Shown: positions 7,668-12,012 of the stretch, piece after piece
How positions within the stretch are numbered: the first letter of the stretch is position 1
Layout of the letters: each line of letters opens with the position of its first letter
Virus genome (UHGV): UHGV-0071160
From: a virus
Direction: 5' to 3' (one strand)
Length of the DNA: 13,797 nucleotides
The notes under the pieces: generated by a model
Database searches by the model: none
Seen by the model: the letters and a program-made list of their open reading frames with translations, nothing else
What the model was told of the DNA's origin: nothing
Program-made: the position numbers and the translations under genes

Positions 7668-8663
7668 GTGACCGTGAGAGCACTACTGACCCCTGAAATC
7701 GCCCCGCGTATGGGGATCGTATTGTTCAGGCCAGGTTCAGAGCTGATGCCCCTGTTTATGCAGGGGCGTGTCCTGCTGGAGCCTGAGCCGGAACGTTATT
7801 CATCTTTTGCCAGTGGTGCCGTTCCGGCATCATCACAACCGCTGGCGGATGATCCTGCCGTTCGGGCCGTGTTCCGCCATGAGGCGGTGATCCGTCGTGC
7901 TGGTGGCGTGGAATGCCTTGAGAGCTGGTTACTTCGTGAAAAGGGCTGTCAGTGGCCTCATTCCGACTGGCACAGCGAGAACATGACCACAATGCGGCAC
8001 GCGCCAGGCGCAATCCGTCTGTGCTGGCACTGTGACAATCTTCTCCGTGACCAGTTCACGGAACGGCTGGAAGCAATGGCAACGGATAACTGTGCCCGCT
8101 GGGTGTTGTCTGTTGTGCGCCGTGATCTTGGTTTTGATGACAGTCACGTTGTGACAATGCCGGAACTGTGCTGGTGGCTGGTTCGTAATGACCTGGCGGA
8201 TGCTTTACCGGAAAGTGCAGCCCGTAAGGCCCTGAGATTACCGAAGCCTGTTTTGCCGTCTGTCACCCGGGAGAGTGACCTTGTACCTTCGGTTACTGCC
8301 ACCAGTATTATCCGGGATAAAGCGAAAAAGGTGCTGGCGCTGAAAGTGGATCCGGAGTCGCCGGAGTCTTTTATGTTACGCCCCAAACGTCGTCGCTGGG
8401 TTAATGAAAAGTACACTCGCTGGGTTAAGACGCAGCCGTGTGCATGTTGTGGAAAGCCAGCTGATGATCCGCATCATCTGATTGGTCACGGCCAGGGTGG
8501 TATGGGGACAAAAGCGCATGATCTCTTTGTGTTGCCTTTGTGCAGAAAACACCATGACGAACTGCATGTGGATACCGTGGCATTTGAAGAGAAGTATGGT
8601 TCCCAACTGGAGCTGATATTTCGTTTTATCGATCGCGCACTGGCGATTGGTGTGCTGTCCTGA
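7668..8663 (+). CDS. DUF968-like (YdfU-like) prophage protein with C-terminal Cys/His HNH-like motif
   Basis: 331-aa ORF; C-terminus CACCGKPADDPHHLIGHGQGGMGTKAHDLFVLPLCRKHHDELH. Lies immediately upstream of Q, as ydfU does next to the Q homolog in E. coli Qin (recalled, not verified). Confidence 0.6.
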   Translation: MTVRALLTPEIAPRMGIVLFRPGSELMPLFMQGRVLLEPEPERYSSFASGAVPASSQPLADDPAVRAVFRHEAVIRRAGGVECLESWLLREKGCQWPHSDWHSENMTTMRHAPGAIRLCWHCDNLLRDQFTERLEAMATDNCARWVLSVVRRDLGFDDSHVVTMPELCWWLVRNDLADALPESAARKALRLPKPVLPSVTRESDLVPSVTATSIIRDKAKKVLALKVDPESPESFMLRPKRRRWVNEKYTRWVKTQPCACCGKPADDPHHLIGHGQGGMGTKAHDLFVLPLCRKHHDELHVDTVAFEEKYGSQLELIFRFIDRALAIGVLS

Positions 8664-8680
8664 TTTTGTGGAGAAAGTTG

Positions 8681-9073
8681 ATGCGTGATATTCAGATGGT
8701 TCTTGAACGCTGGGGGGCATGGGCGGCAAGTGGTAACACCGGGGTGGACTATTCTCCGATAGCTGCTGGATTTAAAGGCCTTTTACCATCCACCGCTAAA
8801 CCTCGCCCGGCCTGCAGCGATGATGACGGCCTTATCATCGAAAACTGCCTTACGCGCCTGAAGAAGAAAAAACCGGACGAGTATTCGCTGCTGGTAGCTC
8901 ATTATCTGCTGCGCATATCAAAAAGGCAGATTGCCAGAACAAGAAAGAAGAGCGAAAAGGCAATACGAATTGAGATGCAGATTGCTGAAGGATTTATTGA
9001 CGGATGTCTGTCGATGCTGGGTGTAAGGCTGGAGATGGACGACTGGCTGCCCAAAAAAGTAAAAAATGATTAG
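8681..9073 (+). CDS. Late-gene antiterminator Q (phage 82/21, QuuD-like type)
   Basis: N-terminus MRDIQMVLERWGAWAASGN...IAAGFKGL matches the recalled QuuD/Q family N-terminus. ATG 8681 has GGAG 8 nt upstream (the track's TTG 8666 is less likely). Followed by terminators and the late-region tRNA cluster. Confidence 0.8.
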   Translation: MRDIQMVLERWGAWAASGNTGVDYSPIAAGFKGLLPSTAKPRPACSDDDGLIIENCLTRLKKKKPDEYSLLVAHYLLRISKRQIARTRKKSEKAIRIEMQIAEGFIDGCLSMLGVRLEMDDWLPKKVKND

Positions 9074-9130
9074 CGCGGTCCGCAAAAAGTATGTCAGTAT
9101 GTTAAGAGTGGTTACTACGCCACACAACTT

Positions 9131-9156
9131 AAACCCGCCGCCTGGCGGGTTTTTTA
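9131..9156 (+). terminator. Intrinsic terminator downstream of Q
   Basis: Stem CCCGCC/GGCGGG (9134-9139 / 9144-9149), 4-nt loop, then TTTTTT (9150-9155). Confidence 0.6.
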
Positions 9157-9278
9157 TGACTGAAATCGCATCAGTACAGTAAACGTGCTGGTGGTGGTGA
9201 ATACCGGTCTTTCAGCTTGCTGGCTTTTTCGACAAGAGTTATTGGTGTGTCACGTTAACCGGAAAAGGGAAAAAGACA

Positions 9279-9475
9279 TGCTGAAACAGCAGGATATGAC
9301 CGAAACCGCCAGAGTGGTGTTTAATGAATTAAGTGCCACCGAACCGGCGACAGTCGGGGAGATTGCGCAGAATACTTACCTTTCACGCGAACGCTGCCAG
9401 TTAATACTGACCCAGCTGGTTATGGCGGGTCTGGCAGACTATCAGTTCGGTTGTTACAGACGCCTTCAGTCCTGA
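9279..9475 (+). CDS. Small putative winged-helix DNA-binding protein (65 aa)
   Basis: ATG 9279 with SD-like AAGGGA upstream; the ORF ends inside a strong terminator hairpin. Sequence (TVGEIAQNTYLSRERCQLILTQLVMAGLA) looks like a wHTH. The longer track version (GTG 9185) has no RBS. Confidence 0.5.
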
Positions 9476-9490
9476 AGGCTTTTTTATTTG
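9462..9490 (+). terminator. Intrinsic terminator (candidate tR'-equivalent) overlapping the stop of the small wHTH ORF
   Basis: Stem GCCTTCA/TGAAGGC (9462-9468 / 9473-9479), 4-nt loop, then TTTTTTATTTG. Confidence 0.65.
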
Positions 9491-9625
9491 TGGTAAATGG
9501 GCGGCTGGTGGGTGTTAGGGGCACTCACCAGCCATCTGCTCATGCGTCCGGATCACAAGCAAACCTCAGGCCCACTGCTTTGCGCAAAAGCAGAATGAGC
9601 CTATCAGAGACAGGCTTAATGATCC

Positions 9626-10684
9626 ATGCTTAATACTGTAAAAATATCCAGTTGTGAGTTAATCAACGCCGACTGCCTGGAATTTATCCGGTCGTTACCC
9701 GAAAATTCTGTTGACCTGATAGTCACGGACCCGCCGTACTTTAAAGTGAAGCCTGAGGGCTGGGATAACCAGTGGAAGGGCGACGATGATTACCTGAAAT
9801 GGCTGGACCAGTGTCTGGCGCAGTTCTGGCGGGTGCTGAAACCTGCCGGAAGTCTTTACCTGTTCTGTGGCCATCGCCTGGCGTCTGACATTGAAATCAT
9901 GATGCGTGAACGCTTCAATGTGCTGAACCATATTATCTGGGCGAAGCCGTCCGGACGCTGGAACGGGTGCAACAAGGAAAGCCTGAGGGCATATTTCCCC
10001 GCCACAGAGCGCATTCTGTTCGCGGAACATTATCAGGGGCCGTATCGCCCGAAAGATGCCGGGTATGAGGCGAAGGGCAGGGCACTGAAACAGCATGTGA
10101 TGGCCCCGCTGATTTCTTACTTTCGTGATGCGCGTGCTGCCCTGGGGATAACGGCAAAACAGATTGCTGATGCCACAGGAAAGAAAAACATGGTGTCGCA
10201 CTGGTTCAGTGCCAGCCAGTGGCAGCTACCGGACGAAAGCGATTATCTGAAATTACAGGCGCTGTTTGCCCGGGTGGCAGAAGATAAGCATCAGCGCGGA
10301 GAACTGGAAAAGCCACATCACCAACTGGTCAGCACATACAGTGAACTGAACCGGCAGTATACGGAACTGCAGAGTGAATATAAGCATCTGCGGCGGTATT
10401 TTGGTGTGACGGTGCAGGTGCCGTACACCGATGTGTGGACGCATAAACCGGTGCAGTACTATCCCGGGAAACATCCGTGCGAAAAACCGGCAGAAATGCT
10501 GCAGCAGATAATCAGCGCGAGCAGTCGTCCGGGTGACCTGGTTGCAGATTTCTTCATGGGGTCAGGTTCGACAGTCAAAGCAGCGATAGCGCTGGGACGT
10601 CGTGCAACTGGCGTTGAGCTGGAGACTGAGCGTTTTGAGCAGACGGTCAGGGAAGTTCAGAATTTAGTCAGTCAGAACGGATGA
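9626..10684 (+). CDS. Orphan beta-class DNA methyltransferase (N6-adenine or N4-cytosine; DPPY motif IV precedes FxGxG motif I)
   Basis: 352-aa ORF; DPPY at residues 35-38 (LIVTDPPYF) and C-terminal AdoMet motif (DLVADFFMGSGST), i.e. the circularly permuted beta-class order. No restriction-endonuclease-like ORF adjacent. Confidence 0.85.
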   Translation: MLNTVKISSCELINADCLEFIRSLPENSVDLIVTDPPYFKVKPEGWDNQWKGDDDYLKWLDQCLAQFWRVLKPAGSLYLFCGHRLASDIEIMMRERFNVLNHIIWAKPSGRWNGCNKESLRAYFPATERILFAEHYQGPYRPKDAGYEAKGRALKQHVMAPLISYFRDARAALGITAKQIADATGKKNMVSHWFSASQWQLPDESDYLKLQALFARVAEDKHQRGELEKPHHQLVSTYSELNRQYTELQSEYKHLRRYFGVTVQVPYTDVWTHKPVQYYPGKHPCEKPAEMLQQIISASSRPGDLVADFFMGSGSTVKAAIALGRRATGVELETERFEQTVREVQNLVSQNG

Positions 10685-10686
10685 TA

Positions 10687-10715
10687 TTGCAGAATTAGTT
10701 ACGTACCGTTATTAT
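10687..10715 (+). promoter_or_regulatory. Sigma70-like promoter for the tRNA cluster
   Basis: -35 TTGCAG (10687-10692), 17-bp spacer, -10 TATTAT (10710-10715), about 9 nt upstream of the first tRNA. Confidence 0.45.
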
Positions 10716-10724
10716 CCTATGCCC

Positions 10725-10800
10725 AGCCCTTTAGCTCAGTGGTGAGAGCGAGCGACTCATAATCGCCAGGTCGCTGGTTCAAATCCAGCAAGGGCCACCA
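10725..10800 (+). tRNA. tRNA with CAU anticodon (Ile2-type/Met; ileX/ileZ-like)
   Basis: Cloverleaf folded by hand: D-stem GCTC/GAGC, anticodon loop CTCATAA (U33, anticodon CAT), T-loop TTCAAAT, 3' CCA encoded. Near-identical in layout to E. coli tRNA-Ile2 as recalled. Position 1:72 is an A-C mismatch. Confidence 0.85.
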
Positions 10801-10809
10801 TATCACATA

Positions 10810-10886
10810 CCGCCATTAGCTCATCGGGATAGAGCGCCAGCCTTCGGAGCTGGCTGCGCGGGGTTCGAGTCCTCGATGGCGGTCCA
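10810..10886 (+). tRNA. tRNA-Arg (anticodon UCG)
   Basis: Perfect 7-bp acceptor stem CCGCCAT/ATGGCGG, anticodon stem CCAGC/GCTGG, loop CTTCGGA (anticodon TCG), T-loop TTCGAGT, CCA encoded. Confidence 0.85.
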
Positions 10887-10899
10887 TTATCAGCATCAT

Positions 10900-10976
10900 G
10901 CGTTGTTAGCTCAGCCGGACAGAGCAATTGCCTTCTAAGCAACCGGTCACTGGTTCGAATCCAGTACAACGCGCCA
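10900..10976 (+). tRNA. tRNA-Arg (anticodon UCU; argU/argO-like)
   Basis: Acceptor stem GCGTTGT/ACAACGC, anticodon loop CTTCTAA (anticodon TCT), T-loop TTCGAAT, CCA encoded. Confidence 0.85.
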
Positions 10977-10990
10977 GACTTATTTTTCCC

Positions 10991-11016
10991 GGCTCGCTTT
11001 TGCGGGCCTTTTTTGT
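10991..11016 (+). terminator. Intrinsic terminator after the tRNA cluster
   Basis: Stem GGCTCGC/GCGGGCC (one G-U pair), loop TTTT, followed by TTTTTTGT. Confidence 0.55.
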
Positions 11017-11146
11017 CTCCGCGCCACGCCCGGCGCATATCAACCACAGAGCCTTTCGGGGGTGAGCTTACGGAGTGGTCAGTGTGACTTTCTCTGTGGG
11101 CAGATCGCTCCCGGGCGTTGGCTCACCCACCCAAAGGAACGTCACA

Positions 11147-11578
11147 ATGCTTGGAATCTTCAAAAAGAAAACCCGCAGAGCGGCTGCGGAAATTAAAAAG
11201 TTTGAAAAACGCGATCTGGCACAGGCAGTGATTAACGCTGCATACCTGGTGGCTTATGCCGATGGTGAATGTGAGGCTTCCGAGAAAGCGAAGATCGAAC
11301 AGGTATTACGTAACCAGCCCACCTTGTCCGCGTTTACGTCAGAAATTAATGCGATTAGCGCAACCATTATCGGTCAGCTGGATACGAACTTTAAAATTGG
11401 TCGTCGAGCGGCGTTACGTGAGATCGAGGATGTGAAACACGATACGCGTGAAGCGGAAGACGTGCTGGATGTGGCGGTGGCCATTGCCGAAGCAGACGGC
11501 GAAATAGAGCCGGAAGAGCGCAAGGTGCTGGAAGAGATTGCCGGTGTTCTGGGCCTTCGTCTGGAGAATCATCTGTGA
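11147..11578 (+). CDS. TerB-like domain protein (tellurite-resistance TerB / DjlA-N-like fold), moron at the stx-equivalent position
   Basis: 143 aa from ATG 11147 (SD AAAGGA 7 nt upstream; the track's GTG 11075 is an in-frame upstream alternative). Two repeated A-x-ADGE motifs (AYADGECEASEKAKI and AEADGEIEPEERKVL) characteristic of TerB-like helical bundles. Confidence 0.7.
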   Translation: MLGIFKKKTRRAAAEIKKFEKRDLAQAVINAAYLVAYADGECEASEKAKIEQVLRNQPTLSAFTSEINAISATIIGQLDTNFKIGRRAALREIEDVKHDTREAEDVLDVAVAIAEADGEIEPEERKVLEEIAGVLGLRLENHL

Positions 11579-11739: not shown

Positions 11740-11980
11740 CAGGGTATCAGTTACCCGTTGAAATTTTTAAATACCTCACAATTCAGGCGGTTGACTGTTG
11801 TCTGGTTTACGGGGAGTTTGTTAAAAGAAACTGGCATGGTGAATCCCCCTGTGCGGAGGGGCATATCAGCGACAGGTGTTTGGTCACACCCCTTATCCTT
11901 TCTGGTGCGGGTTCAGGTGCTGATACTGAACTCACCGGGAGGCACCCGGCACCATGCAATGGCACATAGCGCCACTCTCC

Positions 11981-12010
11981 AGCCCCTCTCCGGAGGGGCT
12001 TTCTTGTTGG
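11981..12010 (+). terminator. Intrinsic terminator (plus strand)
   Basis: Perfect 8-bp stem AGCCCCTC/GAGGGGCT (11981-11988 / 11993-12000), loop TCCG, followed by TTCTTGTTGG. Confidence 0.5.
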
Positions 12011-12012
12011 AT

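Follow-up and report, generated by a model that had tools for sequence, protein, structure and literature searches.

Two closely related methyltransferases, M.EcoGI and M.EcoGII, are known from Escherichia coli O104:H4 isolate C227-11; both are 349 amino acids (aa) long, and 333 of the 349 residues are common to them (PMC5778455). M.EcoGII methylates adenine whatever the sequence context (Murray et al. 2018, PMC5778455). Constitutive expression of an enzyme of this type is harmful to the cell, and both M.EcoGI and M.EcoGII are silent in the lysogen (PMC5778455). The 13,797-nucleotide (nt) stretch of virus genome UHGV-0071160 analysed here (the window), which is part of a lambdoid prophage, includes a gene for a 352-aa methyltransferase of this family. 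It is preceded by a small gene for a 65-aa protein, and the spacer between the two genes encodes a conserved leader of the methyltransferase mRNA. The explanation favoured here, which is considered likely as a whole, is that the methyltransferase is M.EcoGII-family cargo under late-operon control by the antiterminator Q, has an anti-restriction role, and is translated from an mRNA with a start-pairing leader.

The C227-11 prophage resembles the window in the order Q, small gene, methylase, ileZ-argN-argO. Its enzyme has the same beta-class order of motifs and 95% full-length identity to that of the window, and is preceded by the same leader. It differs in the length of the enzyme (349 versus 352 aa, with 16 substitutions), in a small-gene allele that is 52% identical to that of the window, and in the presence of two opposite-strand genes between Q and the small gene–methylase cassette.

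In phage Mu, mom is preceded by a small gene, and a hairpin in the mRNA hides its start codon. In Mu-like prophages, mom is replaced by genes for promiscuous alpha-class adenine methylases, namely Hin1523, Nma1821 and Hia5 (PMC3299994). The window enzyme would resemble the com-mom/Hin1523 group in providing late and broad adenine modification, harmful to the host, by which phage DNA is shielded against many restriction enzymes. However, it belongs to the beta and not the alpha class, it would methylate rather than acetamidate as Mom does, and its context is lambdoid and Q-dependent. The small protein is predicted to be winged-helix-like, unlike the zinc finger Com, and any action on the leader would be conjectural.

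Shiga toxin (Stx) phages carry cargo at a comparable late site, as in the 933W arrangement pR'-tR'-ileZ-argN-argO-stx2 with the small RNA StxS (PMC7547250, PMC4104026). The window shares with them a homologous Q, the late-promoter stretch and the tRNA cluster. The cassette occupies the same insertion site in phiP27, 1720a-02 and several Stx2a, Stx2c and Stx2d phages, where it lies 5' of stx. In contrast to these phages, the window has a TerB-like gene and not stx after the tRNA genes, whereas in 933W-type phages the methylase gene is reduced to its last ~110 nt. A further likeness is to the controller (C) proteins of restriction–modification systems and to self-regulating methyltransferases, in which a gene for a small protein of DNA-binding type lies beside the methylase gene and a palindrome lies 5' of the latter. 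Unlike those systems, the window has no endonuclease, the small protein is not of the XRE-type helix-turn-helix (HTH), the modules occur separately, and the palindrome is located 3' of the small gene, within a leader that is structured and transcribed.

The predicted product of 9626–10684 includes DPPY at residues 35–38 and F-M-G-S-G at residues 310–314, i.e. DPPY before FxGxG as in the beta class, and matches Pfam family N6_N4_Mtase (PF01555) with 150.4 bits (cut-off 26.7), in agreement with the initial annotation of the window. It aligns without gaps to the 349-aa methyltransferase WP_000935520.1 of C227-11, with 332 of 348 residues identical (95%), and at 90% identity the two proteins cluster together, in a group of 4845 members. 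The M.EcoGII type, which had been named in the initial annotation, was correct. The enzyme of phage 1720a-02, named as very similar to M.EcoGII (PMC5778455), is identical to the window protein in 336 of 352 residues. In a nucleotide search, 1720a-02 and several Stx2 phages matched the region with 94–96% identity, and phiP27 with 87%. The central HTH-containing recognition domain covers residues about 160–237 (PMC11551740). Over this domain the alignment with the C227-11 enzyme is gap-free and shows five substitutions (S164A, S191P, D203N, A212S and D220E), all conservative in type. For homologues of 92–93% similarity in Shiga toxin-producing E. coli O111, a lack of specificity was predicted, and none of the methylated motifs detected could be attributed to them (PMC6602927).

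Judged by these alignments, the 352-aa protein belongs to the M.EcoGI/M.EcoGII family as an orphan adenine methyltransferase of the beta class, i.e. it is an enzyme already known, and non-specific adenine methylation by the window allele is strongly expected. The earlier statement that specificity cannot be read from the sequence was too cautious, given 95% identity to a characterised enzyme pair. As annotated, no cognate endonuclease gene adjoins the methylase; its neighbours are the 65-aa gene and tRNA genes, and the same was found in homologous loci. The window enzyme is one more allele of a family that is found in thousands of E. coli prophages and is already sold as a reagent.

Two minor features of the methylase gene were observed among the homologues. 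In many genera, two overlapping convergent Chi octamers (CCACCAGCTGGTGG) are located ~693–706 nt into the gene (e.g. L011, 3693–3706); the window allele does not have this pair. In eight Xenorhabdus loci (L055, L056, L059, L060, L065, L072, L085 and L087), ATGGAATAGCCNGTGAAT recurs just 5' of the methylase match and includes an ATG, an in-frame TAG two codons on, and then a GTG aligned to the methylase start. Sister loci have ATGGAAAATATTGTGAAT at this place, without the in-frame stop.

All physical features listed in the initial annotation are present in the window, and the region is organised as follows.

8666–9073, plus strand: antiterminator Q gene (Pfam Phage_antitermQ, 176 bits; 48% identity to 933W Q), which defines the late transcription unit.
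9090–9156, plus strand: late-promoter/qut-like stretch and first hairpin-plus-T-run terminator (hairpin at 9131–9152), assigned by homology to 933W.
9172–9277, plus strand: conserved untranslated region 5' of the small gene, with a Chi octamer at 9187–9194.
9278–9475, plus strand: 65-aa gene with an ATG start, encoding a probable winged-helix protein of phrog_331.
9462–9489, plus strand: second terminator-like hairpin and T-run (terminator scan), overlapping the stop codon of the small gene.
9494–9625, plus strand: conserved structured leader of the methyltransferase mRNA (column identity and recurrence across loci).
9497–9543, plus strand: leader domain I, a long hairpin (P1, 9503–9514/9522–9533; extension, 9497–9502/9538–9543).
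9535–9563, plus strand: alternative helix (9535–9540/9558–9563), which cannot form together with either the P1 extension or P3.
9550–9625, plus strand: leader domain II (P2, 9550–9555/9620–9625; P3, 9557–9560/9614–9617; P4, 9569–9571/9599–9601; P5, 9575–9581/9587–9593).
9626–10684, plus strand: predicted M.EcoGI/GII-family beta-class N6-adenine methyltransferase gene, 352 aa (DPPY codons, 9728–9739; FxGxG codons, 10553–10567).
10725–10976, plus strand: tRNA cluster (ileZ-like CAU, Arg-UCG, Arg-UCU; ARAGORN and Rfam tRNA matches), in the same direction of transcription.

The methylase gene was annotated as part of a Q-dependent late unit, and this is supported by the 48% identity of Q to 933W Q and by the homology of 9090–9156 to the promoter/qut/terminator stretch of 933W, with which it has in common TAAGAGTGGTTAC and the hairpin-plus-T-run layout. 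The position of the late promoter in the window is assigned by homology to 933W only. The first hairpin is a 9-bp perfect inverted repeat followed by a T-run (9131–9156). The second, detected at 9462–9479 in the terminator scan, has a 7-pair stem (GCCTTCAG/CTGAAGGC) followed by TTTTTTATTT, and comparable hairpins were found in homologues. No sigma-70-like promoter for either the small gene or the methylase was found in a scan of 8600–11300. The presence of two terminator-like hairpins between the late promoter and the methylase would fit both the reported silence in lysogens and read-through dependent on Q.

The order Q, small gene, methylase, and then tRNA or lysis genes was found in C227-11, 1720a-02, phiP27, SfV, mEp460 and PhiR40_1. 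In SfV, mEp460, PhiR40_1 and phiP27, the cassette lies behind quite different Q proteins, and is followed either by tRNA genes and stx or directly by lysis genes. Since the same cassette follows different Q proteins, it appears to be cargo at the known insertion site 3' of the late promoter (PMC4104026).

Remnants of the methylase gene also occur at this site. In phage 933W (L089, 3960–4080) and most Stx2a phages, all that is left of the gene is its final ~110 nt, corresponding to 10574–10684 of the window, and ~214 of 251 phage records match only this terminal piece, which lies directly 5' of ileZ. The piece is a deletion remnant beside the annotated tRNA promoter.

In the favoured explanation, the methylase would be silenced in the lysogen by the two hairpin terminators (9131–9156 and 9462–9489) that separate it from the late promoter. 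Upon induction, RNA polymerase modified by Q would read through both terminators, and the enzyme, made late, would hypermethylate replicating phage DNA, which would protect the progeny from many restriction systems at once. The conserved 135-nt mRNA leader would act as a second, post-transcriptional lock, the more stable fold of which pairs the bases directly 5' of the AUG, a start codon with no Shine–Dalgarno sequence, while an alternative fold would free those bases. The 65-aa winged-helix-like protein would be a frequent neighbour that is separable from the methylase. A layout of this kind, with a late promoter, two terminators and a start-occluding leader, would offer a concrete explanation for the published silence of M.EcoGI and M.EcoGII in the lysogen despite the harm that follows when such enzymes are expressed.

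The leader was found in 54 of the first 90 sources (the window and 89 loci), and 92 leaders were collected overall, including those from ~12 loci that do not have the small gene; it accompanies the methylase even there. The spacer between the small gene and the methylase has 150 nt in the window; among Enterobacteriaceae and Erwiniaceae its length ranges from 147 to 154 nt, and Providencia and Proteus have a spacer of ~142 nt. The leader of C227-11 is 94.6% identical to that of the window over 147 nt. Across 52 leaders, the mean per-column pairwise identity is 0.81, as compared with 0.80, 0.86 and 0.46 at codon positions 1, 2 and 3 of the adjacent methylase gene and 0.39 at its fourfold-degenerate sites. 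The leader is shared from Escherichia to Providencia. In Xenorhabdus and Photorhabdus, the spacer measures ~95 nt and its first hairpin can still be recognised; a U-run often comes after this P1-like hairpin, as in an ordinary terminator.

No conserved open reading frame (ORF) was found in the leader. A leader peptide from the AUG at 9497 was rejected; the frame has 33 codons in the window, but in most leaders it ends after 7 codons at a UAG in the P1 loop, and in others it is shifted by indels. The AUG at 9541 behaves likewise and has no conserved frame. A short translated leader ORF (MGGWWVL) may nevertheless exist. No Shine–Dalgarno sequence before the methylase AUG is conserved across the leaders. 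Comparison with Rfam 15 gave no plus-strand match in 9490–9625 at E ≤5 and no leader family at gathering thresholds. Matches to isrK and STnc370 near 9082–9196 were weak, far under threshold, and were discarded. The small RNAs AgvB and AsxR were rejected as identities for the leader, as both are located 3' of the cargo gene and not at this position. By comparison of homologues, the leader is a strongly selected non-coding element that has no Rfam family; it and the separable winged-helix-like neighbour are the under-described parts of the locus.

The initial annotation included a spacer hairpin with a stem of 10 bp. The hairpin is present, but the stem has 12 bp (9503–9514/9522–9533) and can be extended by another 6 bp (9497–9502/9538–9543). 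Single-sequence minimum-energy folds agree on a two-domain structure (fold A), in which P2 and P3 use 12 nt just 5' of the AUG, and a near-palindrome at 9575–9593 forms the apical hairpin P5. In the predicted ensemble for the window, the probability of being unpaired is ≤0.06 at positions −6 to −1. A covariance model was built from ten equal-length leaders and used to align 54, and then 92, leaders. In the 92 leaders, 97% of the cells in fold A are standard pairs. Changes on both sides were found for 14 pairs, as compared with 5.6 ± 1.3 in shuffles and 1–6 with partners slid; they affect 6 of the 12 pairs of P1 and 8 pairs in domain II. The excess of G-U cells (273) over A-C cells (41) in fold A points to plus-strand RNA; G-U pairs are frequent in domain I.

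An unbiased mutual-information scan gave 9537/9561 as the top covarying pair, with UA in 34, CG in 33, AU in 15 and UG in 4 of the 92 leaders. This pair belongs to a helix that is absent from the alignment model. The alternative helix, a 5-bp closing stem (9498–9502/9570–9574) and a 3' hairpin (9594–9600/9614–9620) make up fold B, in which the start region is free. For fold B, changes on both sides were seen in 11 pairs, as compared with 5.2 ± 1.1 in shuffles, and its closing stem shows one compensatory event, in L017. Mean energies upon fold-constrained refolding were −53.6 kcal/mol for fold A and −48.7 kcal/mol for fold B, and for 34 of the 92 leaders the gap between fold B and fold A was within 3 kcal/mol. 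Two further pairings were rejected, namely a hairpin at 9598–9616, which looked like a minus-strand terminator in the scan and is found in the window subgroup only, and GCUCA/UGAGC pairing between 9538–9542 and 9595–9599, for which the variants on the two sides are uncorrelated.

The folding models make the leader a probable translational gate and possibly a switch. A more specific proposal, that it is an undescribed cis-regulatory RNA which, by switching from one fold to the other, gates the translation of a promiscuous and harmful methyltransferase, is offered tentatively, as a possibility more than an expectation. The trigger of such a switch could be the enzyme itself, the winged-helix neighbour, or a small molecule such as S-adenosylmethionine or S-adenosylhomocysteine. 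M.EcoGII also acts on RNA; hence, the enzyme might bind or methylate its own leader. A true switch would make the leader a new riboregulator with a link to phage anti-restriction, and one of relevance to anyone expressing M.EcoGII-type enzymes.

Several points weigh against the favoured explanation. Direct observation extends to the family identity, the gene order, the terminator-like hairpins, the conservation of the leader and the compensatory base changes, and from these we infer late Q-dependent expression, an anti-restriction function, translational gating and non-specific activity of the window allele. The enzyme differs from that of C227-11 in 16 residues, five of which are within the recognition domain, and the C227-11 copy used in the comparison may be either M.EcoGI or M.EcoGII. 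In the Stx phages of Sakai, the late-promoter transcript ends only at +258 nt (PMC7547250); hence, termination at the first hairpin may be incomplete, which could allow transcription of the small gene in lysogens. Covariation in the leader comes from few lineages (Providencia/Proteus, the phiP27 type and the Klebsiella type), and the alignment in which fold A was assessed had been fitted to that same fold. The methylase occurs without the small gene in ~15 of 80 species-representative loci, and at least two types of viral contig have the small gene without the methylase; a fixed two-gene system is thus not supported. Finally, part of the conservation of the leader could be at the DNA level, as P1 carries a Chi site and the centre of P5 is self-complementary in three variants.

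Taken to its full extent, the last point becomes an alternative explanation, in which the spacer is conserved as a Chi hotspot, as a dyad-symmetric protein site or as a mosaic recombination junction, and not for RNA structure. A Chi octamer (9504–9511) lies within the 5' arm of P1, and GCTGGTGG occurs at 13 sites in 13.8 kb (between 1870 and 11683, 10 of them on the plus strand), as compared with 0.8 expected from shuffles. The density of Chi sites is similar in homologous loci, and Chi-rich lambdoid phages have been described (PMC12315714, PMC3784561). Around the AATGGGCGGCTGG match of two viral contigs, L106 and L144, the small gene, the terminator, the P1 hairpin and an AT-rich stretch are followed by a different gene, for a 237-aa product, in place of the methylase, with the mosaic junction located immediately 3' of P1. 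The centre of P5 is GCGC, UGCA or CGCG, and that it stays self-complementary in every variant is predicted by a DNA-binding site and not by a hairpin loop. However, Providencia and Proteus leaders lose Chi and preserve the hairpin by exchanging both partners of a pair, from GC to AU in three sequences and to UA in three, the 273 G-U versus 41 A-C cells reveal a strand asymmetry, and conservation spans the whole ~135 nt, non-palindromic stretches included. Conservation for DNA-level reasons instead of RNA structure is improbable, though the least so of the alternatives considered.

The small ORF at 9278–9475 had been annotated as ending inside a terminator, and its TGA stop codon (9473–9475) indeed lies in the 3' arm of the hairpin at 9462–9479, which is followed by the T-run-type TTTTTTATTT. 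The frame starting with MLKQQDMTE is kept in ~70 of 88 loci at 34–98% identity, with invariant core residues ..CQLILTQ..AGL, and the product is a member of phrog_331 (PHROG match 1.8e-37), a family of unknown function. By these comparisons, the ORF is a real, conserved gene. A longer GTG-started ORF (9185–9475, 96 aa) was not supported, as homologues have indels of 1–3 nt 5' of the ATG; 9172–9277 is conserved across phages of E. coli, Shigella and Klebsiella, with non-triplet indels.

The small protein matched Pfam TrmB with 19.1 bits, under the cut-off of 25.6, and gave no match in NCBIfam. An AlphaFold2 model from a shallow alignment has three helices and is of moderate confidence (predicted local distance difference test score 69.8). 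The top 50 Foldseek matches in the PDB are almost all winged-helix domains (best E 0.086), and a profile search of PDB sequences gave a best E of 0.005, for the winged-helix domain of DsyB. The label of winged HTH-like protein in the initial annotation is borne out in so far as the fold matches point to a winged helix, which the protein probably has, but every test fell short of its threshold.

These features of the small gene bear on a second alternative, a circuit like com-mom of Mu, in which the small protein would bind the leader RNA and shift it from the start-occluding to the open fold, so that the enzyme would be made only when both genes are transcribed late. The layout of a small gene, a start-pairing leader and a promiscuous adenine-modifying enzyme would fit such a circuit, as would two alternative folds that each have compensatory support. 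In addition, some winged-helix domains bind RNA, and SelB is among the fold matches (query-normalised template modelling score 0.71). However, the small protein is not a Com-like zinc finger, having only two cysteines and no CxxC pair, and its binding to RNA would be a conjecture by analogy. In ~15 of 80 species-representative loci, the leader and the methylase occur without the small gene, and the small gene also occurs without the methylase. Furthermore, the leader sequence does not covary with the small-protein allele. Two alleles with 52% protein identity are found in ~95%-identical flanks (window 9278–9475 versus L002 11797–12000), their divergence being concentrated in helices 1–2 and the C-terminal wing. 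A dedicated regulator–target pair is unlikely because the small gene and the methylase are separable and diverged alleles lie beside near-identical flanks, and a com-mom-like circuit is given only a slim chance.

The near-palindrome CTGCTTTGCGCAAAAGCAG is present at 9575–9593, as annotated, with 7-nt arms that are 100% complementary, and its core TTGCGCAAAA does recur at 1321–1330. This shared 10-mer had been taken as a hint of repressor control, which was not upheld. Allowing ≤1 mismatch, the 10-mer has 4 matches versus 2.0 expected, a count equalled in 27 of 200 shuffles, and no second copy of the full 19-mer was found even at 3 mismatches. The immunity regions of mEp460 and PhiR40_1 are 99% identical to that of the window, yet the palindrome site reads TTTAGCGCAAAA in these phages, which breaks the 10-mer. 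The palindrome is kept in phiP27, SfV and Stx2c phages, all of which have no match to the window immunity region, and the element is also kept in Klebsiella, Citrobacter, Salmonella, Erwinia, Providencia and other genera. Among phage records, 60 have the cassette versus 16 that have the immunity region of the window. Hence, an operator for cI or Cro was rejected, as the 10-mer match is at chance level and is not co-inherited with the immunity region.

A broader form of this alternative is that the small winged-helix protein and/or the cI-like repressor bind 9575–9593 as a DNA operator, in the style of a controller protein, and control transcription of the methylase. The palindrome is real and nearly invariant, its centre is self-complementary in three variants as a hairpin loop would not need to be, and the small protein probably has a DNA-binding fold. 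However, no sigma-70-like promoter was found in 8600–11300, and the shared 10-mer is broken in phages with the same immunity. The palindrome is also kept in ~12 loci without the small gene as well as under other immunity regions and in other genera, and small-protein alleles with 52% identity adjoin near-identical leaders. The chance that an operator accounts for the palindrome is slimmer still.

That the enzyme is a sequence-specific orphan methyltransferase like Dam or CcrM, acting as an epigenetic regulator in the lysogen, is very improbable, for although CcrM and M.RsrI, its best solved-structure relatives by sequence, are in the same Pfam family, the enzyme is 95% identical to those of C227-11 (where the lysogen revealed no motif for them and M.EcoGII has been demonstrated to lack specificity), the homologues of 92–93% similarity were predicted to be non-specific with no attributable motif detected (PMC6602927), and two terminators lie 5' of the gene.

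The tRNA genes 3' of the methylase are homologous to genes annotated as tRNA-Ile, Arg and Arg in C227-11 and 933W. The first of them (10725–10800) is identified as tRNA-Met (CAU) by ARAGORN, and its homologue is annotated as tRNA-Ile (ileZ) in both. A TerB-domain gene at 11075–11578 (Pfam TerB, 58.6 bits) fills the cargo position after the tRNA genes, which is occupied by stx in Stx phages. Three regions of the window matched Rfam families above the gathering score, namely STnc100 small RNA at 11805–12011, 3' of the TerB-like gene, and C4 antisense RNA (2645–2732) and isrK (2544–2620) in the region of a Rha-family regulator gene.

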